A DNA stretch of 23,984 nucleotides, from assembly GCA_043739185.1 (NCBI GenBank), contig JAYUEN010000016.1, positions 1 through 23,984 of the forward strand, written 5' to 3'. Of the stretch, positions 1,860-23,135 are shown one piece after another (positions within the stretch are counted from its first letter, which is position 1; each line of letters opens with the position of its first letter). Source of the stretch: Bdellovibrionales bacterium (lineage in GTDB: Bacteria > Bdellovibrionota > Bdellovibrionia > Bdellovibrionales > JAMPXM01). The position numbers were made by a program, and so were the translations under genes. The notes beneath the pieces are model-generated. The model saw nothing but the letters and a program-made list of their open reading frames with translations. It was not told the origin of the DNA and did not search any database.

Positions 1860-3776
1860 TTAATTTACATCCTTATAATCGGCATCAATAACATCATCAT
1901 CTTTTTTGCCGCCAGAAGTTGCTCCTGATGCGGTATCAGCACCACCATTAGCGCCAGCCGCCGCGCCCTCTGGGCCCTTTTTCTGATAAATATCATTGGT
2001 AATCTTATGACTCAAAGTTTGCAATTTATCATAAATCGCCTTGATCTCAGTTACTGACATATCTTGATTTGCAATCACCGCTCGACCACTAGTAATCAAA
2101 TCAGTTGCGGCTGTTGCATCTGCCTCAGGTATGATCTTGGTATTTTCTTTAATGGTCTTTTCAGTTTGATACATTAGCCCGTCGAGATCATTTGAAGCGG
2201 TGATGCGCTCACGACGCTTTTTATCATCTTCAGCATGCTCTTCGGCATCTTTAACCATGCGTTTGATATCATCGTCTGTCAAACCAGACTTCGCAGTGAT
2301 TTTGATGTTTTGAGTTTTGCCAGTTCCCAAATCTTTTGCCGAAACATTTAAGATACCATTGGCATCGATATCAAAGGACACTTCAATTTGTGGAGTGCCA
2401 CGCTGAGCTGGAGGAAGACCCACTAGCTCAAAGCGACCCAAGGTTTTATTATCGCCGGCCATATCGCGCTCACCTTGAAGCACATGAATATCAACGCTTG
2501 GTTGATTATCAGCAGCGGTCGAGAAGGTCTGAGATTTTCTGGTTGGAATAGTGGTATTGCGCTCGATGAGTTTGGTCATGACACCACCCAAAGTTTCGAT
2601 ACCAAGAGACAAAGGTGTGACATCTAACAAGAGAACGTCTTTTACTTCGCCACCAAGTACTCCACCTTGAATTGCAGCACCAACGGCCACCACTTCATCA
2701 GGATTCACTGAACGATTTGGTTCGCGACCAAAGAAATCCTTAACGGCTTTTGCAACCGCAGGAATTCGAGTTGATCCTCCAACCAGAACCACTTCATCAA
2801 TGTCTTTAATTGACCAGCCAGAGTCCGCAAGAGCTTTCTTAGTTGGCTCCATTGAACGCTTCACAAGATCTTCAGTCATTTGGTCAAATTTGGCGCGCGA
2901 CAATTTAAGCGTTAAATGCTTAGGACCACTTTGATCAGCAGTAATGAATGGGAGATTAATCTCAGTCTCCATTGCGCTTGAAAGTTCGATCTTCGCTTTT
3001 TCAGCTCCCTCTTTAAGGCGCTGCAAAGCCATCTTATCGCCCTTCAAGTCAATGCCCTGATCTTTTTTAAATTCAGCGATCATCCACTCTAAGATGCGAA
3101 TATCGAAATTATCTCCGCCCAAGTGGGTATCACCATTTGTTGATTTTACTTCAACGACATTGTCGCCCACTTCAAGAATCGAAATATCAAAAGTACCGCC
3201 ACCTAAATCATAAACCGCAATTTTTTGATCTTTGTTTTTATCAAAGCCGTAAGCAAGTGCCGCGGCTGTTGGTTCGTTAATAATACGTTTGATATTAAGA
3301 CCCGCAATTTTTCCTGCATCCTTAGTCGCCTGTCTCTGGGCATCGTTGAAATAAGCAGGAACAGTTACTACGGCATCGGTTACTTCAGTGCCAAGATAGT
3401 CCTCAGCAACTTTTTTAAGTTTAGCCAAAACCGCAGCTCCAATTTCTTCAGGAGATACAACTTTATCATTAATCTTAAATCCGCAATCATTACCTTTTTT
3501 CACAACATTATAAGGAACCAAAACGGTTTCTTCTTTGGTCTCTTCGAACTTACGTCCAATAAAACGCTTTGAAGAAAAAATCGTATTTTCTGGATTGGTC
3601 ACCGCCTGGCGCTTTGCAATTTGACCAACTAGCTTTTCGCCATCTTTGGTATAGGCCACAACTGATGGAGTCGTTCTCCCGCCTTCTTCGTTCACTAAAA
3701 CTTTAGGGTCCCCGCCCTCCATTACCGCAACAACCGAATTGGTCGTACCTAAGTCAATTCCTATAATTTTACCCAT
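1860..3776 (-). CDS. dnaK: Molecular chaperone DnaK (Hsp70)
   Basis: Motifs [54 protein letters not shown] and C-terminal DVIDADY; SD AAGGAG upstream. Confidence 0.99.
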
Positions 3777-3824
3777 TTTAAGCTCCTTTAATAAAACTTT
3801 TAAACTTTAAGCATTTACTTTTTA

Positions 3825-3855
3825 AATATGTATTCGATTTGCAACTCGTCAAGTG
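3825..3855 (-). promoter_or_regulatory. Putative heat-shock (RpoH-like) promoter of dnaK
   Basis: Minus strand CACTTGAC-gagttgcaaa-TCGAAtACATATT; same layout as the motif before dnaJ. Confidence 0.7.
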
Positions 3856-3862
3856 CAGCTAC

Positions 3863-4945
3863 TTAAAAAAATCCCTTTTTTGGGTCGAGGACTTTTTCGC
3901 CTCGAAGTTTAGCCAATTCGCGCAGAAGTTTTTCTTCTTCTTTTTTTAGCTTTTGCGGAATCTCAACTTCGATTTCAAAGTAAAGATGGCCTCGGCCTCC
4001 GCCTCTGAGTGAAGGTACCCCCCTGCGATCCATTTTGATACGATCTCCGTGAGCTGAGCCTGCAGGCACTAAAAGTTCCTCTTTGCCTTCAAAAGTATCA
4101 ACATTTAGATGTGATCCAAGCAAAGCTTGCAGATAAGAGATTTTCACACGCGAGAGCAAATCAAGTCCATGACGTTCAAACTGCTCATCATCAGCAATGC
4201 GAATTTCAACATAGAGGTCGCCGGATGGGCCGCCCTTAAAGCCGCCCTCGCCTTCACCGCTCACTCTCAATTGAGTGCCATTATCAACGCCTGCCGGAAT
4301 ATTCACTCGAATCTTGCGCTTTATTTTTGAGCGACCACTTCCTCTGCACTTTTCGCAAGGACTTTTAATAATTCGGCCTTGGCCATGGCAAACCGGACAA
4401 GTCGTAGCCACCGAAAAGAATCCTTGAGAAGCAACCACTTGACCTTGTCCGCGGCAGTGTTTGCAAGTTTCAGCACTCGTGCCCTTTTGGGCTCCAGAGC
4501 CTGCGCAATCGACACAGCCCTCTTCAGTTTCAAATTCGACATCGCGTTCTGAGCCTTTGATAACGTCTTTTAATTTTACTTCGCACATATAACGTAAGTC
4601 AGAACCTCGCCCTGACTGACTCTTGCTTCGCGGGCGCCCTCTACTGGCACCAAAAAAATCTGAAAAAATGTCGCCAAAACTTGAGAAAATATCTTCGGAG
4701 TTTTGAAAACCGCCGCCATTTGCAAAAGCTGCATGTCCGAAACGGTCATATTTCGCGCGTTTTTCTGGATCACCTAAAACTTCATAGGCCGCCGCACAAG
4801 TTTTAAATTTGTTTTCGGCTTCGTGATTTCCGGGGTTTTTATCTGGATGAAACTGCATCGCAAGTTTGCGATAGGCCTTTTTTATCGTATCTTGGTCAGA
4901 GCTCCGCTCCACCCCTAAAACTTCATAGTAATCTTCTTTTGACAT
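3863..4945 (-). CDS. dnaJ: Molecular chaperone DnaJ (class A)
   Basis: J domain with HPD, G/F-rich region, four CxxCxGxG motifs ([32 protein letters not shown]), and GDLYVEI. Confidence 0.98.
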
Positions 4946-4967
4946 GCCTTTTCCTCAATCAAAGCAC

Positions 4968-4998
4968 AATATGTTTTCGAGTACAAAAAGGTCAAGTG
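4968..4998 (-). promoter_or_regulatory. Putative heat-shock (RpoH-like) promoter of dnaJ
   Basis: Minus strand CACTTGAC-ctttttgtac-TCGAAaACATATT; matches the dnaK upstream motif with identical spacing. Confidence 0.7.
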
Positions 4999-9722: not shown

Positions 9723-10220
9723 GTGAAGAATACAATATTGAAGGCATGTGCAGGATTTGCTCTTGCCTTGATCGGAATTAACGCCGCGGCGCAACAGCTG
9801 CCGGTTTGCATCAATCATATAACTGGTTATCAGGTGCCAATTATTACCAATGCTGGCCAATCGAACCCAGCCTATTCGACCCTTGATCCAAGAACTGGCA
9901 GCCCAGAAATATTTTTGAATATTCCGGTTTTGCAAAATTTAGGAATTGATACTTCACCATATACTCTCACTTTTATTGTAGAGCATGAGTGCGGCCACGT
10001 TAATTTGGGACATCTTACAACTGGTCCGGTGCCACGAAAAAAGACCAATCAAGAAGAACTTGCGGCTGATTGTTATGCCGCTCATGCCGTTAAAAAATTG
10101 GGCTTCAATCAAAGCATGCTACATTATGTATTGATCGACGTAGATAAATTGCCGAAAGATCCTGATCATCCAGCGGGTATTGTGCGCGCTGCAAATATTG
10201 TGAAGTGCTTTGGTAAATAG
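9723..10220 (+). CDS. Small secreted protein with HEXXH zinc-metallopeptidase (M48-like) motif
   Basis: GTG start with GGGGGA SD; signal peptide (AAA|QQ); HECGH, downstream ELAADCYA, and HPxxxxR (HPAGIVR). Confidence 0.72.
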   Translation: MKNTILKACAGFALALIGINAAAQQLPVCINHITGYQVPIITNAGQSNPAYSTLDPRTGSPEIFLNIPVLQNLGIDTSPYTLTFIVEHECGHVNLGHLTTGPVPRKKTNQEELAADCYAAHAVKKLGFNQSMLHYVLIDVDKLPKDPDHPAGIVRAANIVKCFGK

Positions 10221-10242: not shown

Positions 10243-10274
10243 AAAAGGAGCCGTGATCTGGCTCCTTTTTTTTT
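10243..10274 (+). terminator. Rho-independent terminator
   Basis: AAAAGGAGCC-gtgatct-GGCTCC followed by T9, about 20 nt after the stop of 9723-10220. Confidence 0.9.
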
Positions 10275-10297
10275 GGCTTATGAGCTTCGATCTCCCC

Positions 10298-10833
10298 CAA
10301 CTCAATGTCGGCACAGCGGGCTCGCCACCCCACTTAAACTTCAAAGAATTGCAGAAGAGCCACTTTACTATGAACCATTTTTTCTGTTCGTAAGTGAGGG
10401 CCATAAACTTTCAACGCAGTCAAAAATTTCAGAAAAAATGTTGAGTGCGAGTGAAGTCTGGCTGCTTTCAGATGAAAATTGCTTTCGCAATCAAGTACTA
10501 GAGGTTTGCACTGAACGTGGCCAAAAAATAAAACTTGGTCAGCTCGAACTCAAAGCAAGTCATCTTGAACCTCTGATTGAACTAGTGGCCACTGGCAACG
10601 GCTATACTCTTCTTCCGCAAATGGCAGCCGAGAGTGTCAAAAAGCGAAAAATTTCTGGTCGCATCATTGAATTTTCGCGCCCCTCTCCTGCACGAGAAAT
10701 AAGTCTAGTTCATCGTCGAGGCCCATTGAAGCAAAGTATTCTCAAGGCCTTAAGCGAGAGCATTTTACAAGGCGTGCCCAAGACTTTTGCAAGAGAAGCT
10801 TCGCGCGCAATGCATACCGTCGGTGTCAATTAG
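10298..10833 (+). pseudogene. oxyR: 5'-truncated, frameshifted oxyR remnant (LysR regulatory domain only, no HTH)
   Basis: LATP, EEPLYYEPF, VWLLSDENCFRNQVLEVC (two Cys spaced like C199/C208), GYTLLP and PAREISLV. The preceding QLNVG (10298-10312) is in another frame. No SD; a terminator lies immediately upstream. Confidence 0.75.
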
Positions 10834-13898: not shown

Positions 13899-14626
13899 TT
13901 CAGCCCGATTTGCAAAAGCAAATCTTCAAATTTAGCATCTAATGAGGCTTGAATTCTCACTGGCGTATCAAGGACAGGATGTTGAAACCCAAGGCTTGTG
14001 CAGGCTAGTAAAAGACGATGACAATTAAATTTGGTGCGAAAGATTTGGTTGTGTATTCCGGAACCATAGTTGACATCCCCAACTATCGGATGCGAGAGAT
14101 GCTTGAGATGTCTTCTGATTTGGTGCTTTCTTCCGGTCTGAGGTGTGGCCTCAATTAAACTGTAACGACTCGTAGGATGGACACCGCTTGAAAAGTCGAG
14201 TTCACATTGAGATAAAAGTCTAAAATTGGTTTTCGCATTCTGCGCTTTTTTGGTCTTGTTAGCTTTGAAATCAGTCTTGCGATCTTGAATTTCTTTAAGT
14301 GGATACTCGAGTTCAACTCGCTCAGACATAAAGCCACGAACCACGGCTAAATATTTTTTTTCAATTTGGCCGCGAGTGAAAAGATCGGTCATGGCGCGCG
14401 CAGCCACTGGCGATTTTGCGAATAAAAGTACCCCCGAAGTAGCTTTATCTAATCGATGCACCGGATAGACCCGCTTGCCAATTTGGTCACGCAAGATCTG
14501 AAGAGCAAATTGTTTTTCTTTTGAATCAATTTTTGTAGCATGCACCAAGAGACCCGATATTTTGTTAATCGCTACAAAATATTCATCCTGAAATAAGATT
14601 TCGAGTTCACAGATCTTCAAAGACAC
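13895..14626 (-). CDS. truC: tRNA pseudouridine(65) synthase TruC (RluA family)
   Basis: NKISGLLVH, LRDQIG, PVHRLDKATSG, TGRKHQIRRHLKHLSHPIVGD and RLLL; no S4 domain; GTG start with GGAG SD. Confidence 0.88.
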   Translation of the reverse strand: MSLKICELEILFQDEYFVAINKISGLLVHATKIDSKEKQFALQILRDQIGKRVYPVHRLDKATSGVLLFAKSPVAARAMTDLFTRGQIEKKYLAVVRGFMSERVELEYPLKEIQDRKTDFKANKTKKAQNAKTNFRLLSQCELDFSSGVHPTSRYSLIEATPQTGRKHQIRRHLKHLSHPIVGDVNYGSGIHNQIFRTKFNCHRLLLACTSLGFQHPVLDTPVRIQASLDAKFEDLLLQIGLK

Positions 14627-15020
14627 GAATAAGCTCCCCAGGAATTGGGGTAGGACGACCCGTTTTTAAATTGACGTAAACCCAAAAAGTCTTAGCACTA
14701 AGAACTTTTTTTTGATCATGAGTTCGTATAATACAATACTCACGGGTGGTTTTAACCCCCTCCATAGCCGAGACCCAAGTCTCAAGTAGCAATTCTTCTG
14801 CCAATAGTACCGGCGCCAAATAATCAATTTCATGGCGACGCACTACGAAGCCGGCACCATCTGAAATAAATTTCTGTAAACTATATCCTAAACTGTCAGA
14901 ATGTTTTGTCGCACCCTGCATGAGCCAAGTAATATAAACTTCATTATTCACATGTTTAAATTCATCAATATCATTTTGACTTACTTTAATTGGCATTCTG
15001 AACATTTTTGTTTGGCTCAT
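14607..15020 (-). CDS. Acyl-CoA thioesterase (YbgC/4-HBT hot-dog family)
   Basis: DIDEFKHVNNEVY, VRRHEIDYLAP and TGRPTPIP. Start set at ATG 15020 (MSQTKMF). Confidence 0.9.
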   Translation of the reverse strand: MSQTKMFRMPIKVSQNDIDEFKHVNNEVYITWLMQGATKHSDSLGYSLQKFISDGAGFVVRRHEIDYLAPVLLAEELLLETWVSAMEGVKTTREYCIIRTHDQKKVLSAKTFWVYVNLKTGRPTPIPGELIRVFEDL

Positions 15021-15212
15021 ATTGGCAATATATAATCGCAAGCTTCGCTTTATTGCAACGGCCAATCTTATCGATATTTGGTATATCTTGATTTAAAAGA
15101 CGCCTTAAAAAATGGAAGGCCAAAAGATTTGCAAAAAAATCAATGCTTAAAGCTGCTTACCGAAATCAAACGAGTCCTTTAAAAGATGAGAACGCAAAAT
15201 TTTAATTTCGCG

Positions 15213-15243
15213 CACTTGACTTCGTTTAAAAGCGAATCATTTT
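15213..15243 (+). promoter_or_regulatory. Promoter-like motif of the mini-gene
   Basis: CACTTGAC-N17-CATTTT; same CACTTGAC and spacing to CAT as the dnaK and dnaJ motifs. Confidence 0.55.
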
Positions 15244-15285
15244 TGAATCAGGTTGATCGAAAAACAAATCTTAAGGAGGTTTTCA

Positions 15286-15321
15286 ATGAGATCTGGGGCA
15301 GTAAAAGAAGTGACTAAATAG
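15286..15321 (+). CDS. 11-aa mini-ORF MRSGAVKEVTK; possible internally deleted cold-shock protein gene or small peptide
   Basis: Perfect SD TAAGGAGGT (15272-15280) 5 nt before ATG; stop TAG at 15319-15321; followed by a + strand terminator. Confidence 0.6.
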   Translation: MRSGAVKEVTK

Positions 15322-15327
15322 TCTGAG

Positions 15328-15367
15328 GCAAGGCTCCGCTTTAATTTTCAGGAGCCTTGTTTTATTA
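15328..15367 (+). terminator. Rho-independent terminator, + strand
   Basis: CAAGGCTCC (15329-15337) / GGAGCCTTG (15351-15359) followed by TTTTATT; the U tract exists only on the + strand. Confidence 0.8.
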
Positions 15368-16822
15368 GCCAATCCACGAAATGAGGCTCCGGCGTTCTGA
15401 GAATTCTTCCATCGCAAAGCGAATGCCCTCGCGGCCAAGGCCGGAGCTTTTCACTCCACCGTAAGGCATATTGTCGGCTCGATAGGTTGGTATATCGTTG
15501 GCTATTACTCCACCCACCTCAAGATTCTGCAGAGCTTGGTATTGAAGCTCGGAGTTCTGAGTGAAGACACCTACTTGTAAACCAAATTTTGAAGCATTGA
15601 CCAAATCAAGGGCTTCAGAAAAATCTTGATACTCTTGAATTAAAACAATTGGCGCAAAAACTTCTTCGCATGATACTTTGCTTGTCGCTTTTACTTGGGT
15701 CAAAATCGTGGGCTGAATAAGATTTTTTTCTCTGGTTCCTCCGGTCAAAACCTTTGCGCCTTCTGCTTTTGCCTCGTCAATCCATTTCATTATGCGCTCG
15801 GCGGCGTTCTCATCAATGACAGGACCAACGCTTGTATCTTTATCATTTGGATCACCCGTTTTGATCTTTGCGGTCTCTTTGAGTAATGCATTGGTGAATT
15901 CGTCTTTCACTTTAGTATGCACAAAAATTCGTTGAACTGAAATACAAGATTGCCCAGCATAGCCATAACCACCCGTCGCGCACCTTTGGGCTGCTCGCAA
16001 AATATCTGAGTCAGAGTGAACAATCACTGCGGCATTGCCACCCAATTCGAGGGCAATCTTTTTACCTATTGCTTGGCCCTGAAGCTCCCATCCCACTTTA
16101 CCGCTGCCTGTAAAGCTGAGTGTTGAAAGCCTCGGGTCACGAACAGCTTTTGATAATATTTCATTTGAGCAATTTAAAACTTGAAAGCATGCGGCCAAGA
16201 TATTTTCTTTTGTATCTGAGGCTTGCCGAATAGCCTTTTCAAAAATCTCAGCAAGTAAATAAGCACAGCCAGGGGCTTGAGGTGACGGCTTTAATAAAAT
16301 CGGACAACCGACAGCTAAAGCGGGTGCTACTTTGTGCGCAACCAAATTGAGCGGAAAATTAAAAGGCGTAATTGCAAGAATGGGCCCGCGAGCAAACCAG
16401 TATGAGATGGCGGGCGCATAAGCTCTGCCAGAAGCATCAATATCAAGAGGAATGACTTCGCCGCCAAATCTTTTTGCTTCCTCACTTGCTATCGTAAAAC
16501 TTTGAATTGCACGATTCACTTCCATTTCAGCAAACAGAAAAGGTTTGCCAGCCTCTTCAATCATTTTTTTTATGAAATCTTTTCGCCGCATTTCAATTTC
16601 AGCAGCCATAAGACCCAAAACTCGGCTCCGCATATAGCGGCTATTTTTTCGAAATCCTAAACTGACGTCGTGAGCAGCCTGAATAGCGATCTCTAGATTT
16701 TCGGGGGTGGCCATACTTACCAGGCTCAGTTTTTCGCCTGAAAAAGGAGACTTCAATTGTGCTTTTTCAGAAGACTCCAACCATTTTCCGTTGATAAAAC
16801 TTTTATAAATTAGCTGAGGCAT
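15365..16822 (-). CDS. Aldehyde dehydrogenase, ALDH21/y4uC-like; candidate succinate-semialdehyde dehydrogenase
   Basis: PFNFPLNLVAHKVAPALA, SFTGS, LELGGNA, AGQSCISVQR, EEVFAP and MPYGGVKSSGLGREG. Start overlaps the gabT stop (TAATG). Confidence 0.9.
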   Translation of the reverse strand: MPQLIYKSFINGKWLESSEKAQLKSPFSGEKLSLVSMATPENLEIAIQAAHDVSLGFRKNSRYMRSRVLGLMAAEIEMRRKDFIKKMIEEAGKPFLFAEMEVNRAIQSFTIASEEAKRFGGEVIPLDIDASGRAYAPAISYWFARGPILAITPFNFPLNLVAHKVAPALAVGCPILLKPSPQAPGCAYLLAEIFEKAIRQASDTKENILAACFQVLNCSNEILSKAVRDPRLSTLSFTGSGKVGWELQGQAIGKKIALELGGNAAVIVHSDSDILRAAQRCATGGYGYAGQSCISVQRIFVHTKVKDEFTNALLKETAKIKTGDPNDKDTSVGPVIDENAAERIMKWIDEAKAEGAKVLTGGTREKNLIQPTILTQVKATSKVSCEEVFAPIVLIQEYQDFSEALDLVNASKFGLQVGVFTQNSELQYQALQNLEVGGVIANDIPTYRADNMPYGGVKSSGLGREGIRFAMEEFSERRSLISWIG

Positions 16823-18144
16823 TAGGATAAACTCGCAATTCCGGCCTCTAATATTTTTAAGCCTTCTTCAACATCTTTTAACTCTGTCACTAGCGGCATC
16901 AACAATCTCACAACATTGCCTAAAGAGCCCGAGGTCATAGTGATTAAGCCTCCTTCATAACAAAATTTAACTAAAGCTTTAGCAAGCTCAGGATCAGCTT
17001 CTTTGGTTTTTCGATCTTTCACAAATTCAATTCCCAACATCGGCCCAAGGCCTCTGATATTGCCAATGCGAATTTGTCGCTCCTGCATTGCTACCAAATG
17101 ACTTTTCAAAAATTGGCCTAATTTTTTTGCTTTTTCTAAGAGATGATCTTTTTGAATGGTCTCGATTACCGCCAAGGCCGCGGCACAACTCAAGGGATTG
17201 CCACCAAAGGTCCCGCCGATTCCGCCCTCGGGTGCTGCATCCATAATTTCACTGCGACCAGTGACTGCCGAAATCGGTAAGCCACCACCCAAGCCTTTGG
17301 CGGAGAGAATGAGATCGGGAGTCCATTCGAGCTGTTCACAGGCATACAAGGTGCCGGTTCTGCCAAATCCACTTTGAATTTCATCGGCGATACTCACAAT
17401 TTTTTCTTGTTCGCAAAAATCTTGCAGTAATTTTAAAAATTCCTTTGGAGCTGGAATAAATCCGCCCTCGCCTAAAACTGGCTCAATTATAACAGCTGCT
17501 GGTTTTTCTTTTAAGCTTGAAATGAGGTGTTTAAATTCTGCAAAACATTCTTTTACAACTCTTGCAGGCTCTTCGCCCGATGGCCAACGATAAGCAAAGG
17601 GATAGTGTGCACGATGCACATCCGGCATTAGGTTACCGAATCCAGCCCGGTAGGGTTTTTCTTTATAGGTCAGAGAAAGAGCCATAAAAGTTCTGCCATG
17701 AAAAGCATGCTCAAAGCAAATGACGGGATTTCGCCCGGTAAAAGCGCGTGCAATCTTAATCGCATTTTCAACTACCTCTGCGCCACTATTGGCTAAAAAC
17801 GATTTCTTCTTAAAACTTCCTGGCGTTAATTGATTTAATTTTTCACAGAGTTCGATATAGACCTCATAAGGCGTGACATTAAAGCTTGCGTGCAGCAATT
17901 GATCTGCTTGCTGATGTATTGCTTGTACAATATGAGGATTGAGGTGGCCAAGATTTAAAACTCCAATGCCTGAGGCGAAATCAAGTAGGATATTTCCGTC
18001 TACATCTTCGAGAAATGCCCCTTTGGCCCTTTTTACAAATATGGGCGTGACATGAAATGGGCTTTTGAGCACAGCTTCGCTACGCCTTTTCATTAGTTCA
18101 ATGCTCTTGGGACCAGGAACTTTTGTTTTAAGTTGAATAGACAT
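16822..18144 (-). CDS. gabT: 4-aminobutyrate aminotransferase (class III PLP)
   Basis: DVDGN, DFASGIGV, NSGAEVVENAIKIAR, AFHGRT, EPVLGEGG, DEIQSGFGRTG, SAKGLGGG and GGTFGGNP. Start set at ATG 18144. Confidence 0.92.
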   Translation of the reverse strand: MSIQLKTKVPGPKSIELMKRRSEAVLKSPFHVTPIFVKRAKGAFLEDVDGNILLDFASGIGVLNLGHLNPHIVQAIHQQADQLLHASFNVTPYEVYIELCEKLNQLTPGSFKKKSFLANSGAEVVENAIKIARAFTGRNPVICFEHAFHGRTFMALSLTYKEKPYRAGFGNLMPDVHRAHYPFAYRWPSGEEPARVVKECFAEFKHLISSLKEKPAAVIIEPVLGEGGFIPAPKEFLKLLQDFCEQEKIVSIADEIQSGFGRTGTLYACEQLEWTPDLILSAKGLGGGLPISAVTGRSEIMDAAPEGGIGGTFGGNPLSCAAALAVIETIQKDHLLEKAKKLGQFLKSHLVAMQERQIRIGNIRGLGPMLGIEFVKDRKTKEADPELAKALVKFCYEGGLITMTSGSLGNVVRLLMPLVTELKDVEEGLKILEAGIASLS

Positions 18145-18146
18145 TT

Positions 18147-19610
18147 TTAGTACCAACCAATCGGAGTTTCATCGAGATTGATATTCACTTGTTTAGTTTC
18201 TAAATAAGCTTCGATGCCGTAAAGTCCGAGTTCTCGACCCGTTCCGCTTTGTTTATAACCACCCCAAGGCATTTCATTAAAGGTCGGATGATAATTATTC
18301 ACCCAGGTAATTCCTGCTCTTAGTTCTTTTACGACGCGAATCCCTTTGGTAATATTGGTGGTCCAAACACCGGCGGCCAAACCATATTCAGTATCATTTG
18401 CGAGTTCAATGGCCTGAGCTTCAGTTTTAAAAGTTGTAATCGTGAGTACAGGCCCAAAAATTTCTTCTCTGAAAATTCTCATTTTCGGTGTCACTTGATC
18501 AAAAATTGTCGGCTCACAAAAATTACCTTTTGCAAACTCACTTCCTTGAGGGCGCTTGCCTCCGCATAAGAGCTTCGCCCCTTCTTCTTGGCCTATTTTA
18601 ATATAGGCTTCAACTTTTTTAAGATGCTCAACTGACACCAAGGGACCCATCTTGACATCTTTTAAAAGACCATGACCCAATTTTATTTTTGGAATTTTTT
18701 TAAGAATCGCCGCAATAAGTTTTGCATGAATGCTTTCTTCAACTAAAAGCCTTGAGCCAGCTGAGCAAACTTCTCCTTGATTTGCGAAGGCTCCAAAGAG
18801 CGCACCATCTACTGCCATTTCAAAATCAGCGTCGGCGAAAATGATGTTCGGGTTTTTTCCGCCAAGTTCAAGCGTGGTTTTTTTAAGATTTGATGTCGCA
18901 GCATTTGCGATTTTTCTGCCGGTTGCAGTCCCACCTGTAAAGGCAACTTTGTCTACGAGCATACTGCTTGCGAGTTCTTCGCCTACTCCTGCTCCAGGGC
19001 CAGTGACGAGATTGACTACACCAGAAGGCAAGTCAAGAGTCTGAATTAACTTTACTAGCTCAAGTGCGGTTAGCGGCGTGAGCTCAGAAGGTTTTAATAT
19101 ACAGGTATTTCCGGCAGCAAGTGCGGGTGCCAACTTCCAGGCGGCCATGAGTAAGGGAAAATTCCAGGGAATGATTTGTCCGCAAACGCCCAGTGGCTCT
19201 CGCAAAACAAAACTGAGTGAATTGGCTGGGACGCTCATGGTTTCGCCGTGAATCTTGGTAGCCAGTCCGCCATAAAACTCAAAACAATTGGCTGCATCTT
19301 GCACATCAAATTCAGCCTCAGCCAAGGGTTTACCACAATTTTTGGTTTCAAGCTCAGCTAGCATTTTGGCGTTTTGCCTGATTAAATCGCCAATTCTGAA
19401 TAAGTATTTTCCACGCTCAAGAGCGGTGGTTTTTCTCCAGGCACCAGAGTCAAAGGCTTTACGAGCTGCTTGAATTGCGGTGACTGCATCTTCGCGACTA
19501 CTTTCAGCCACACTAGCGATGATTTCGCCATTGCCCGGATCTTTGATTTCGCGAAGAGCTTTATTTTTTGCCGGCACCCAATTGCCGTTTATGAAATTTT
19601 CGTATTTCAT
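18147..19610 (-). CDS. Aminoaldehyde/betaine-aldehyde dehydrogenase family protein
   Basis: IIPWNFPLLMAAWK, KPSELTP, AFTGG, LELGGKNP, NQGEVCSAGSR, EEIFGP and PWGGYKQSG. Confidence 0.92.
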   Translation of the reverse strand: MKYENFINGNWVPAKNKALREIKDPGNGEIIASVAESSREDAVTAIQAARKAFDSGAWRKTTALERGKYLFRIGDLIRQNAKMLAELETKNCGKPLAEAEFDVQDAANCFEFYGGLATKIHGETMSVPANSLSFVLREPLGVCGQIIPWNFPLLMAAWKLAPALAAGNTCILKPSELTPLTALELVKLIQTLDLPSGVVNLVTGPGAGVGEELASSMLVDKVAFTGGTATGRKIANAATSNLKKTTLELGGKNPNIIFADADFEMAVDGALFGAFANQGEVCSAGSRLLVEESIHAKLIAAILKKIPKIKLGHGLLKDVKMGPLVSVEHLKKVEAYIKIGQEEGAKLLCGGKRPQGSEFAKGNFCEPTIFDQVTPKMRIFREEIFGPVLTITTFKTEAQAIELANDTEYGLAAGVWTTNITKGIRVVKELRAGITWVNNYHPTFNEMPWGGYKQSGTGRELGLYGIEAYLETKQVNINLDETPIGWY

Positions 19611-19611
19611 T

Positions 19612-21033
19612 CTAATCCTTTATTTGAAATTTCGGTCCCTGAAATTTATGTCGTGCTTGAAAAAACCAAATGAGACATAGGGAAATAAAAAGTGCGCCAA
19701 TGACCACTCCGGCTTGTTGATTCGGTGGCAGTACAAAGACAATAGTTATAAAACAGATCCAAATGAGGCCTAAAAATGCAATTGACGTGCTCAATTTTCC
19801 TAAATGCCAAGGGCCCGGCTCATCTTTTATTTTTTTAAATCTCCCTGAGAGTCTCGCAAAAATCGGTAGGCCATATGAAATATAAAGTGCAATCGTCGCA
19901 ATTGAAACCACTGCTGTATACAGGTCAACTGACAATACAAGTAGCATAGCTAAAGCCGCGAGCCCCCAAATTGCATTTGCTGGTACACGGTGGCGAGTGC
20001 TGACTCTCGCCCAAAATTTCGCATACGGAAGTCCGCCATCTCTGGCAAATGCATAAACCATTCTCGAGGCAGAAGTCATTGCACCCAGGCCACAAAGCCA
20101 CATGGCACCAGCTATGAGAATCGCCAAAGACCTTCCAGTACTTTCGCCCAAGCGAAGTTTTAAGATTCCGGTGAAAGCGTCGTCACCCATTGCGGTCACT
20201 TGCGTAAGATCAGGAATTGAAAGTGTTACGGCTATCAACATAATCAAACCAAAAATGACCGAGATACCAACAGCTAAAACAATTCCCCATGGCGCATTCT
20301 TTCTGGGGTTTTTTGTCTCCTCGGTCACATGTGCAGAAGCATCGTAACCAGCGAGCGTCCACTGCGCGAGCAATAGTCCGATGAGCATTATATAAGGGGG
20401 TGGAAGTTTCGGATCAATACTTTGAAACTTAAACAGAAATGAAATGGGCTGCGCAATGCCTTTTGAAAGCAAAGCTCCAAGTAGCAAAGAGACCACTGCG
20501 ATATGATACCAAGCTGAAAAGTTATTGAGCCAAGACACAACTCGAATACCAATATGATTAAGCCCTGCATGAGTAAAAAGTAAAAAGGCGTAAAGTAAAA
20601 TCGGAAAAAAACCTGTGGTTGGCCAAGCAAATATGCCAATTAAAAATTGTGCGAGTCCGTAATCAATACCTGCCAATACCGCAAATTGCCCAATGGTATT
20701 AAAACACGCTGTGAACCACCCCAGTCGCTTAGAGCCTAAAAAGCTACTCCAGTGATAAAGCGCTCCTGAGGTCGGATAACTACTGGCCAATTCTGCCATC
20801 GCAAGTGCAACGAAAAAAGTAAAAATTGATACGAGAATCCAACCGAAAATAATTTGTAATGGACCGCCGTATTTTAATCCGTAACCATAGAGTTGGGTGA
20901 TGCCGGTCAAAATTGAAATCACTGAAAAGCTAACGGCGAAACTTGAGAAGCCGCCCATATCACGGAGCAATTCTTGGGCGTATCCAAGATGCTTTAAATC
21001 ATCGCTGTCGAAACTGATATTTTGTTTTGTCAC
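19612..21033 (-). CDS. APC-superfamily amino acid/polyamine/GABA permease (ACT-type)
   Basis: LGYAQELLR, FAVSFSVISILTG, MAELASSYPTSGALYHW, GYDASAHVTEET and SRMVYAFARDG; about 12 TM helices. Likely GTG start at 21033. Confidence 0.92.
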   Translation of the reverse strand: MTKQNISFDSDDLKHLGYAQELLRDMGGFSSFAVSFSVISILTGITQLYGYGLKYGGPLQIIFGWILVSIFTFFVALAMAELASSYPTSGALYHWSSFLGSKRLGWFTACFNTIGQFAVLAGIDYGLAQFLIGIFAWPTTGFFPILLYAFLLFTHAGLNHIGIRVVSWLNNFSAWYHIAVVSLLLGALLSKGIAQPISFLFKFQSIDPKLPPPYIMLIGLLLAQWTLAGYDASAHVTEETKNPRKNAPWGIVLAVGISVIFGLIMLIAVTLSIPDLTQVTAMGDDAFTGILKLRLGESTGRSLAILIAGAMWLCGLGAMTSASRMVYAFARDGGLPYAKFWARVSTRHRVPANAIWGLAALAMLLVLSVDLYTAVVSIATIALYISYGLPIFARLSGRFKKIKDEPGPWHLGKLSTSIAFLGLIWICFITIVFVLPPNQQAGVVIGALFISLCLIWFFQARHKFQGPKFQIKD

Positions 21034-21040
21034 ATTCAGA

Positions 21041-21069
21041 ATTGTACGTGCACGGATGTTCGAGATCAA
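21041..21069 (-). promoter_or_regulatory. Sigma70 promoter of the permease-ALDH-gabT-ALDH operon, probably leaderless
   Basis: Minus strand TTGATC-N17-TACAAT-N7-GTG with no SD. Confidence 0.65.
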
Positions 21070-21147
21070 TCTCGTTACGCTTTCGCAGCGCTCAACTTTG
21101 GTCTAGCTTTGACATATTTGGGATGAAGTGTGAGCCTTCTTTTAACC

Positions 21148-21190
21148 ACTCTGAAAACATACAACCTCTAGGGTTGTAATTTTTCAGAGT
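21148..21190. promoter_or_regulatory. 43-bp imperfect palindrome (operator or 5'UTR hairpin) upstream of the amine oxidase
   Basis: ACTCTGAAAA-ca-TACAACC-tctag-GGTTGTA-at-TTTTCAGAGT, ending 6 nt before SD GGAGG (21197-21201). Confidence 0.7.
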
Positions 21191-21206
21191 ACTTCCGGAG
21201 GCTACA

Positions 21207-23135
21207 GTGAGACTTATTTTGTTAGGTATTTTACTTTCTTCAAACGCATTGGCACATCCGCTCGATCCCCTTTCTAAAAATGAAATTGAAATTGCCATGC
21301 AAGTTCTGAAAAGAGCCGAACTCACAAACCAAGATACTTTGTTTCCTTATTTTATGTTGAACGAACCTGCAAAAAGCGAAGTCTTAAAAGGCGGCCCAAC
21401 AAAACGCGAAGTTTTCATCGAGAGATTTGATCGCAAACAAAGTAAGCTTTATGAAATCATCATCGATATAGGTGCGAAAAAAATATTGAGCAATAAGGAA
21501 ATGTCCGGCGCTCAACCCTCTGTCATGCTCAGTGAGTTTGATGCGGCCCCTCCGATTGTTAAAGCCGATGCGAGATTCAAAGAGGCGATGCAAAGACGTG
21601 GCATCTCTAATCTCGATGATATTGCAGTTGATATTTGGGCATACGGAAGCCCTGACTCCGATCACTCAAAAAGTGCCAGGCTCCTAAGAGCAATTTGTTA
21701 TTTTAAAGGCAAGGGCAAAAACTTTTATGCACGCCCAATTGATGGCCTCACCTTTATTGTCAATATGGATGAGAAAAAAGTTGAGAAGGTAGTCGATACT
21801 GAAGTTTATCCGATTCCACCAAAAGCTTCTGAATTAGATGCCAAATCATTGGGGCCTAAACGCCAGGGACTCAAAGCTCTTAAAATTTCTCAACCCCAGG
21901 GCCCGAGCTTTCAAATCAGTGGCAATCAAATCACTTGGCAGAATTGGCGCTTTCGCTACAGCATGCATCCGCGAGAGGGATTGGTTATTTATTTAGTTGA
22001 GTATCACGATCAAGATCGTTGGCGCCAGATTATGTACCGCGGCTCCCTTTCAGATATGATGGTGCCCTATGGACATCCGGATCAGCACTGGACCTACCGC
22101 AATGCTTTTGATGAGGGTGAATATGGCATCGGAAGATATAGTGGCCCTCTCAAAAAAGGTGCCGAGGTGCCTGACAATGCAAATTTGTTTGATGCCACAT
22201 TCGTTGATGATTTCGGAAAAGTTTATGTAACAAAAAACGCCGTGGCCCTTTACGAAAGAGATGGCGGACTTCTCTTTAAGCATTTTGATATGTACAATGG
22301 CGGAAACTTTGTGCGCAGGTCTCGAGAACTCGTCATCGGTTTTATCACCACCATTAGCAACTATGACTACGGTATCAATTGGATCTTCAAACAAGATGGC
22401 TCAATTGAGCTTGAGGCCCAACTCACAGGCATCATGCTAGCCAAGGGTTCGCATATCGAAAGCATGCCTTCAGGGCACCAACATTCAGAGGGTGATTTGA
22501 AGTATGGACATTTGGTTGCTCCAAATGTGGTAGCACCTCATCATCAACATTTTTTTAATTTTAGACTCGATATGGACATCGATGGCCTTGAAAATCGCGT
22601 TGCGGAACTCAATACCGAAGCTGTTACCGATAAATCTATTAATGCCGCCGGAAATGTTTTTTCAATGCAAGAAACTCCGTTGAAATCAGAGCTCGAAGCC
22701 GCCCGTGATCTCGATTTTAAGGCCCAACGAAAATGGAAGATTTATAATCCAAAGTCAAAAAATTCACTCGGCTATGAAGCCGGTTTTGTTTTGGTCCCAG
22801 GTGAAAATGCCGCCCCTTATTTGCAGGATTATTCACCTCTGAAAACTCGCGGTGGCTTTATCAATCATCAATTTTGGACAACCCAAGAACGAGACGATGA
22901 AATTTATGCGGGCGGAGCCTATCCCACTCAGCGTGCAAGTGCCGACGGCCTGCCGGTTTGGATAAAACAAAATCGCTCGCTTGAAAATCAAGATCTGGTT
23001 TTATGGTATACTCTTTGTGTCACCCACGCTCCGCGCCCTGAAGAGTGGCCGGTTATGAATGTGCATCGCACGGGCTTCAAACTCCTACCCGCCGGATTTT
23101 TCGAAAAAAATCCTGCCCTGGATGTGGCCGAATAA
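21207..23135 (+). CDS. Exported copper/topaquinone amine oxidase (TynA family)
   Basis: Signal peptide (NALA|HPLDPL), catalytic Asp region AFDEGEYG, TPQ site SNYDY, Cu ligands HQH and VTH, PRPEEWPVM, and GFFEKNPALD. GTG start with GGAGG SD. Confidence 0.96.
   Translation: MRLILLGILLSSNALAHPLDPLSKNEIEIAMQVLKRAELTNQDTLFPYFMLNEPAKSEVLKGGPTKREVFIERFDRKQSKLYEIIIDIGAKKILSNKEMSGAQPSVMLSEFDAAPPIVKADARFKEAMQRRGISNLDDIAVDIWAYGSPDSDHSKSARLLRAICYFKGKGKNFYARPIDGLTFIVNMDEKKVEKVVDTEVYPIPPKASELDAKSLGPKRQGLKALKISQPQGPSFQISGNQITWQNWRFRYSMHPREGLVIYLVEYHDQDRWRQIMYRGSLSDMMVPYGHPDQHWTYRNAFDEGEYGIGRYSGPLKKGAEVPDNANLFDATFVDDFGKVYVTKNAVALYERDGGLLFKHFDMYNGGNFVRRSRELVIGFITTISNYDYGINWIFKQDGSIELEAQLTGIMLAKGSHIESMPSGHQHSEGDLKYGHLVAPNVVAPHHQHFFNFRLDMDIDGLENRVAELNTEAVTDKSINAAGNVFSMQETPLKSELEAARDLDFKAQRKWKIYNPKSKNSLGYEAGFVLVPGENAAPYLQDYSPLKTRGGFINHQFWTTQERDDEIYAGGAYPTQRASADGLPVWIKQNRSLENQDLVLWYTLCVTHAPRPEEWPVMNVHRTGFKLLPAGFFEKNPALDVAE

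Follow-up and report, generated by a model that had tools for sequence, protein, structure and literature searches.

Hsp20 genes of the Bdellovibrionota (PF00011; e.g., B. bacteriovorus kdesi, L182) form monocistronic units with a CTTGAC motif 61 to 90 nt upstream and an AAGGAGG Shine-Dalgarno (SD) sequence, and 41 of the 51 Hsp20 proteins that we fetched begin with MR. The mini-ORF unit described here shares all of these features but lacks the alpha-crystallin domain and about 93% to 94% of the coding sequence, so that no chaperone is made from it: a functional Hsp20 needs an alpha-crystallin domain of about 100 aa, and the entire mini-ORF product has 11 aa. The unit also recalls the cold-shock proteins (CSD, PF00313), with which it has a strong SD, a monocistronic layout, and a G-x-V-K motif in common, but its locus, leader, and promoter are wrong for a csp gene and its match to the ends of these proteins is lower. 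The G-x-V-K likeness is best read as a coincidence, since the GAVK of the mini-ORF would derive from the C-terminal tail of an Hsp20 protein.

Two further kinds of system are relevant for comparison. According to the available text of PMC6054270, free-living bacteria show a deletion bias and purge pseudogenes quickly, and the gene remnants described there lose coding sequence by deletion, as is the case here. The short life of such remnants in free-living bacteria (PMC6054270, available text) fits the occurrence of the mini-ORF in one species only. Unlike the remnants in that text, the mini-ORF shows one large in-frame deletion with expression signals and both ends intact and is free of frameshifts and gradual decay. 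The small RNA OxyS, as presented in the accessible part of PMC8825220, originated in the mRNA of a peroxidase, in whose regulon it has remained; similarly, the mini-ORF unit is a fragment of a stress gene under the regulatory input of its parent. However, OxyS is conserved and expressed with a known function in that account (PMC8825220), whereas conservation of the mini-ORF unit was sought and not found and the unit is known from DNA alone.

An 11-codon unit with complete expression signals

The mini-ORF lies on the plus strand of the window (the whole stretch of 23,984 nt that was analysed) in a gap of 299 bp between 2 minus-strand genes. Its divergent neighbor is a thioesterase-like gene (PF13279; 14607 to 15065), which adjoins the dehydrogenase also in the same-genus genome G001, and its convergent neighbor is an aldehyde dehydrogenase gene (PF00171; 15365 to 16822) that served as synteny anchor, with orthologues of 71% to 75% aa identity in the same-genus genomes G001 to G003. 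The promoter CTTGAC (15215 to 15220)-N17-CATTTT (15238 to 15243) has its -35 element 71 nt 5' of the ATG and is followed by a leader (15244 to 15285) in which transcription would start near 15250. This leader carries the SD sequence TAAGGAGGT (15272 to 15280) with a 5-nt spacer to the ATG of the mini-ORF (15286 to 15321; MRSGAVKEVTK and stop). An intrinsic terminator-like hairpin with T tract (15324 to 15366) borders on the stop codon of the convergent dehydrogenase gene. An earlier note on this DNA had described these elements in a 300-bp gap, and all of them are indeed present in the sequence. Its statement that the SD is the best of the window also holds, with TAAGGAGGT being the strongest SD and occurring only once there. 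Genome-wide, 13 sites read TAAGGAGG and then ATG, and among these only that of the mini-ORF leads into a frame of at most 30 aa.

The hairpin (15324 to 15364), with a loop of 13 nt, has a predicted energy of -21.3 kcal/mol, and its 3' arm enters the plus-strand T tract. A generic consensus scanner listed neither the promoter nor the terminator, because the -10 box fails its rule and the loop is longer than 8 nt. Compared to shuffled sequences, the 118-nt unit folds only modestly better (z -1.79; 9/200), and an Rfam search with it gave just 2 chance-level matches (E about 4) and no family. Support for an RNA thermometer of ROSE or fourU type was sought and not seen: the SD is partly paired, but warming from 15 to 45°C raises its predicted unpaired fraction only from 0.29 to 0.38, and Rfam holds no match. 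As a separate observation, the region from 15365 to 23135 appears from its sequence to encode 2 aldehyde dehydrogenases, a class III aminotransferase, an amino-acid permease, and a copper amine oxidase-like gene (with a profile match for the first dehydrogenase only), which is consistent with amine or GABA catabolism.

Homology to hsp20 genes at locus, leader, and protein ends

A DNA search of 41 genomes revealed 3 genomes of the same genus, G001 to G003, that match at the dehydrogenase. At the same site and strand as the mini-ORF, and convergent on the aldehyde dehydrogenase gene, G002 has a gene of 176 aa and G003 one of 189 aa, and both are Hsp20 (PF00011; E 1e-24 and 2e-23, respectively). 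A full hsp20 is thus found at the orthologous site in 2/3 same-genus genomes, and G001 has no gene there. The stretch comprising leader, SD, and start (15238 to 15291) is 87% identical to G002 hsp20 over 54 nt and 82% to G003 hsp20 over 44 nt; neither alignment score was reached by any of 300 shuffles each, so that the match exceeds chance and marks this leader as homologous to those of the relatives. Behind the hsp20 of G002, a hairpin with T tract (-17.7) sits in the same place as the terminator of the window, and no likeness between the 2 terminator sequences was detectable. Leader or promoter matches in G039, G033, and G050 are short, and those in G039 and G033 are not syntenic. A metagenome scan with the dehydrogenase returned 55 loci, none of them with an hsp20 or a leader match, but these loci are too distant to be informative.

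The 2 ends of the peptide point to the same parent. We scored the peptide against the best combination of prefix and suffix of each protein, and the highest match was to P0003, a 167-aa protein from the homologue search that begins with MRS and ends with GAVKETSK (score 39; 8/10 non-Met residues; best split after residue 3). P0003 is tied to the locus by its tree position only, as it groups with the syntenic proteins of G002 and G003 and with P0004 at a support of 100/100. Among the relatives that carry names, P0008, P0036, P0045, P0046, and L182 suggest a placement in the Bdellovibrionota. The hsp20 products of G003 (score 27; 6/10; best split again after residue 3) and G002 (score 18) follow, so that the 3 best terminal scores among the 51 fetched Hsp20 proteins all come from the syntenic clade and the next one is 12. 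As background, 4183 ORFs of the genome gave a top score of 24, and none of them reached 6 matched residues. A start with MRS occurs in only 2 of the 51 Hsp20 proteins, both of the syntenic clade; the hsp20 of G003 begins in this way and that of G002 with MRT. The C-terminal tail GAVKEVTK is identical to P0003 in 6/8 positions at equal distance to the end and to G003 (GAVQSVQS) in 4/8, with weak likeness to G002, and a D-[PA]-G tail motif is common to the syntenic clade (4/51 Hsp20 proteins). On its own, the 27-nt DNA tail is a weak match (15/27 to G003; local alignment not significant), and no relative with the exact peptide tail was found in 2 protein searches. Taken together, locus, leader, and protein ends establish the identity of the parent gene, and the mini-ORF is almost certainly what remains of an hsp20 gene.

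The promoter belongs to the same context. In agreement with the earlier note, it resembles the dnaK and dnaJ motif: CTTGAC-N17-CATATT precedes dnaK and dnaJ (3776 to 3853 and 4945 to 4996 of the window, minus strand) as well as groES on contig C386 (about 100380), which had played no part in defining the pattern. The hsp20 paralogue on contig C522 has the same type of promoter (position 507). Among related hsp20 loci, CTTGAC lies 61 to 90 nt upstream in 16/23 (24 loci minus that of G002, whose contig ends 48 nt upstream), compared to 29/3304 ORFs of the genome, though these loci are kin and not independent. The -35 element is at -71 in the window and at -69 in G003 hsp20. A strict form of the pattern matches 9 sites in the genome versus 1 to 2 in 3 shuffles, a comparison that is partly circular since the dnaK, dnaJ, and hsp20 sites had themselves served to define the pattern, and the other 5 genome matches are near genes that by eye are not chaperone-like. 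We saw no such motif upstream of the second groES, nor upstream of grpE as far as that stretch was covered. A candidate palindromic operator within the promoter was discarded, since 26 matches make its pattern a common one.

No HrcA was found in this genome. The sigma-32-like factor L231 passes 1 of 3 sigma-32 models, clearing PRK06596 (285.5 vs 241) and missing TIGR02392 (289.8 vs 323.1). The accessible text of PMC3464611 regards Bd3314 of B. bacteriovorus as unlikely to be RpoH and reports groES1EL of this organism as induced at 42°C. Sigma-32 sites as tabulated in the available part of PMC545781 have shorter spacers than the mini-ORF promoter. By its sequence, the mini-ORF promoter is of chaperone type with a candidate sigma factor only, and we infer that the unit would be induced by heat.

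The deletion

The matches of prefix and suffix to P0003 and G003 imply a loss of about 156 to 178 codons, which includes the whole alpha-crystallin domain and amounts to about 93% to 94% of the coding sequence. A single internal deletion would have joined codon 3 of the hsp20 gene (first three codons, MRS, at 15286 to 15294) to its last eight codons and stop (GAVKEVTK; 15295 to 15321), with about 470 to 530 bp gone at an approximate junction at 15293 to 15295, and would have spared the promoter, leader, SD, and start on one side and the stop and terminator on the other. The 5-mer AGATC occurs in the G003 hsp20 at gene positions 4 and 537, where the two breakpoints lie, as well as at 210 and 314; it is absent from the G002 hsp20. 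These repeats suggest that the deletion arose at a short overlap, through slippage or end-joining. Because a clean crossover at AGATC of G003 would be one base off frame, either the join used an overlap of 1 to 2 nt or a further base was lost, and the exact join can be fixed only with a closer intact allele; no close relative with such an allele was found in 251 genomes of the order or in 2 protein searches. Frame and stop of the ancestral gene are retained across the join, for which the odds are 1 in 3. The earlier proposal that a gene had lost its middle and had its 2 ends fused in frame stands with regard to a stress gene with intact expression signals, but the parent is an hsp20 and the loss comprises 156 to 178 rather than about 55 codons.

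The missing middle of the gene was not found elsewhere in the 97.65%-complete assembly. Its only strong match is the paralogue on C522, which is 45% to 52% identical, groups with another genus, and, being cut by the contig end, is seen in part only. A search of the genome for PF00011 gave 4 matches, all on contigs other than that of the window, confirming that the alpha-crystallin domain is gone from the locus. The genome may have coped with the loss thanks to its paralogous hsp20, whose promoter is of the same type, and the deletion is probably recent, with expression signals that have not yet decayed. The unit would still be transcribed together with the chaperone genes, giving an RNA of roughly 115 nt, and its translation would yield an 11-aa peptide that could have no chaperone activity and would be degraded.

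Other features of the surroundings were noted along the way. On C522 (2 to 1207), the paralogue is next to another protein, which looks secreted and matches HSP20 weakly. A protein with an EHECGH motif that also looks secreted is encoded at 9723 to 10220 of the window, and its homologue in G001 (L008:2757-3173) is near the DTW gene in opposite relative position. At 10273 to 10833, a LysR-type substrate-binding region that we take to be OxyR-like, seemingly devoid of the N-terminal DNA-binding part and possibly another truncated gene, precedes rubrerythrin and Fe-S oxidoreductase-like genes. An RluA-type pseudouridine synthase of 243 aa in the window has a counterpart of only 106 aa in G001 (L004:2712-3032), which appears internally deleted.

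Artefact, remnant, or retained unit

The source of the mini-ORF had originally been sought in a cold-shock gene minus its middle, a reading that could draw on the resemblance of MRSGAVK to Csp starts, on the best of 19 Csp proteins (score 25; 5/10 residues), and on a genome without an intact csp, in which a CSD (PF00313) search gave no gene above cut-off and one match below it on another contig. However, csp absence is normal in this family, where 3/24 genomes have a CSD gene versus 14/16 genomes of the other families of the order, which suggests a family-wide loss. The only same-genus csp, that of G001, is found in a different neighborhood and has a terminal score of 16, and even the best Csp score is well below the 39 of P0003. 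Inspection of the locus in relatives for a full csp or the same mini-ORF instead revealed hsp20 in G002 and G003 and no gene in G001; a non-csp gene at the orthologous locus had been set beforehand as refuting a csp origin, which is hereby refuted. Given that leader and promoter match hsp20 units as well, the chance that a csp gene was the source is vanishingly small.

An assembly collapse, or a minority allele in a living population that has a full hsp20 at this site, is another way to explain the short form, and the genome is indeed a fragmented metagenome assembly of 540 contigs. We aligned Logan contigs instead of raw reads to positions 14600 to 16000; such contigs drop rare variants, and the 4 DNA runs that carry the stretch (X1 to X4) all come from one study, with 2 of them possibly the source of the assembly. 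We demanded 31 bases on either side of the junction near 15294 for a contig to count as bridging. X1 and X2 each cover 14600 to 16000 with one contig and 0 differences to the window, and a contig of X3 (14600 to 15328) spans the junction and extends 34 bases past it, again with 0 differences, whereas the X4 contig (15270 to 15626) covers the junction with about 25 bases on the left and falls under the 31-base rule. The sole variant, G15327A, lies between the stop codon and the core of the stem and comes from a single X4 contig (one lineage), and no joints, indels, or loose ends were found at ORF or junction in the contigs of X1 to X4. The inspection that had been proposed for reads over 15286 to 15321 thus returned, on contigs, only the short form and no full-length csp: in these contigs of one study, 4/4 runs have the short form and 0/4 an intact allele, a pattern compatible with fixation, be it through drift or selection. 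This short form exists as real DNA, and because it recurs in contigs from other assemblies, the suspected collapse is rejected as far as contigs show. Beyond this, the breakpoint overlap in G003 is just 5 nt and too short to collapse 31-base words, and the hsp20 middle is missing from the assembly; we therefore regard collapse or a minority allele as very unlikely.

The remaining question is whether the unit has been retained for a function of its own. With the hsp20 origin accepted, the short unit could now be under selection within the chaperone regulon, either as a small RNA induced by stress or for its micropeptide of 11 aa. It could bind ribosomes as a decoy, act on the convergent dehydrogenase as antisense or terminator element, or work through its peptide. 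This would agree with expression signals that are all intact and include the strongest SD of the window, with the preserved frame, with the precedent of OxyS (PMC8825220, accessible part), and with a leader that is 87% identical to that of G002 and thus far more conserved than the four-fold sites of the neighboring gene, which are saturated (0.24 to 0.39). Yet a leader that was under selection until a recent deletion would be conserved just as well, and the short form is seen in 1/35 genomes of the family and in no other species searched. Matches to the tail pattern among 262 are limited to the window's own 2 loci, and a scan for the SD-start pattern over at least 120 loci showed 15/120 opening ORFs of 30 aa or less, of which 0 were peptide-like (3/120 matched Hsp20). 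Hfq was not found in 4/4 genomes of the genus, Rfam offers no family, and no structure stands out beyond the terminator. The promoter has also been kept, separately and without the gene, in G001, where the site (L004:2135-2290; G001:C141:8229-8384) has no hsp20 but the CTTGAC motif and then about 130 nt of unrelated sequence; the gap there measures 156 bp, is unlike that of the window, and has the motif at a distance of 136 nt to the dehydrogenase stop. A weak GGAG-ATG 7-codon ORF and a hairpin of -12 kcal/mol were noted at this site. The G001 remnant has no significant match to the window or the other genomes of the genus, and its absence of hsp20 next to a kept promoter motif shows that the gene is dispensable and that promoters can outlast it. 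As the G001 dehydrogenase is closest to that of G002 (84% aa), the loss in G001 looks like a separate one, judged by pairwise identity and not by a rooted tree. Altogether, selection for such a role seems unlikely to us.

The preferred reading is that of an internally deleted hsp20 gene that is very probably a non-functional remnant, likely still transcribed and with no chaperone function; a recent deletion explains intact signals, kept frame, and leader conservation without any new function. Gene erosion by deletion is a known process of which this is a new instance, and we found no report of the mini-ORF locus in a literature search that was not designed to prove absence from print. There is a slim chance that the locus is instead a newborn small RNA or micropeptide of the stress regulon, in which an hsp20 would have turned into a transcript of 115 nt with near-perfect SD and 11-codon ORF that is selected, e.g., as ribosome decoy or dehydrogenase regulator; promoter retention in G001 would then indicate a role of the locus at transcript level.

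As a remnant, the unit carries little weight beyond being a clean case of gene loss by a single in-frame deletion. It also cautions that a larger gene can leave behind a short ORF as its shell, with perfect expression signals and a deceptive likeness to an unrelated family. If functional, it would represent a traceable one-step origin of a regulatory RNA or peptide that inherits the regulation of its parent, the route proposed for OxyS. As a by-product, the analysis brought up a promoter, CTTGAC-N17-CA(T/C)(A/T)TT, that is common to chaperone genes across the order and, recurring before hsp20 throughout, may be the chaperone promoter of this group.
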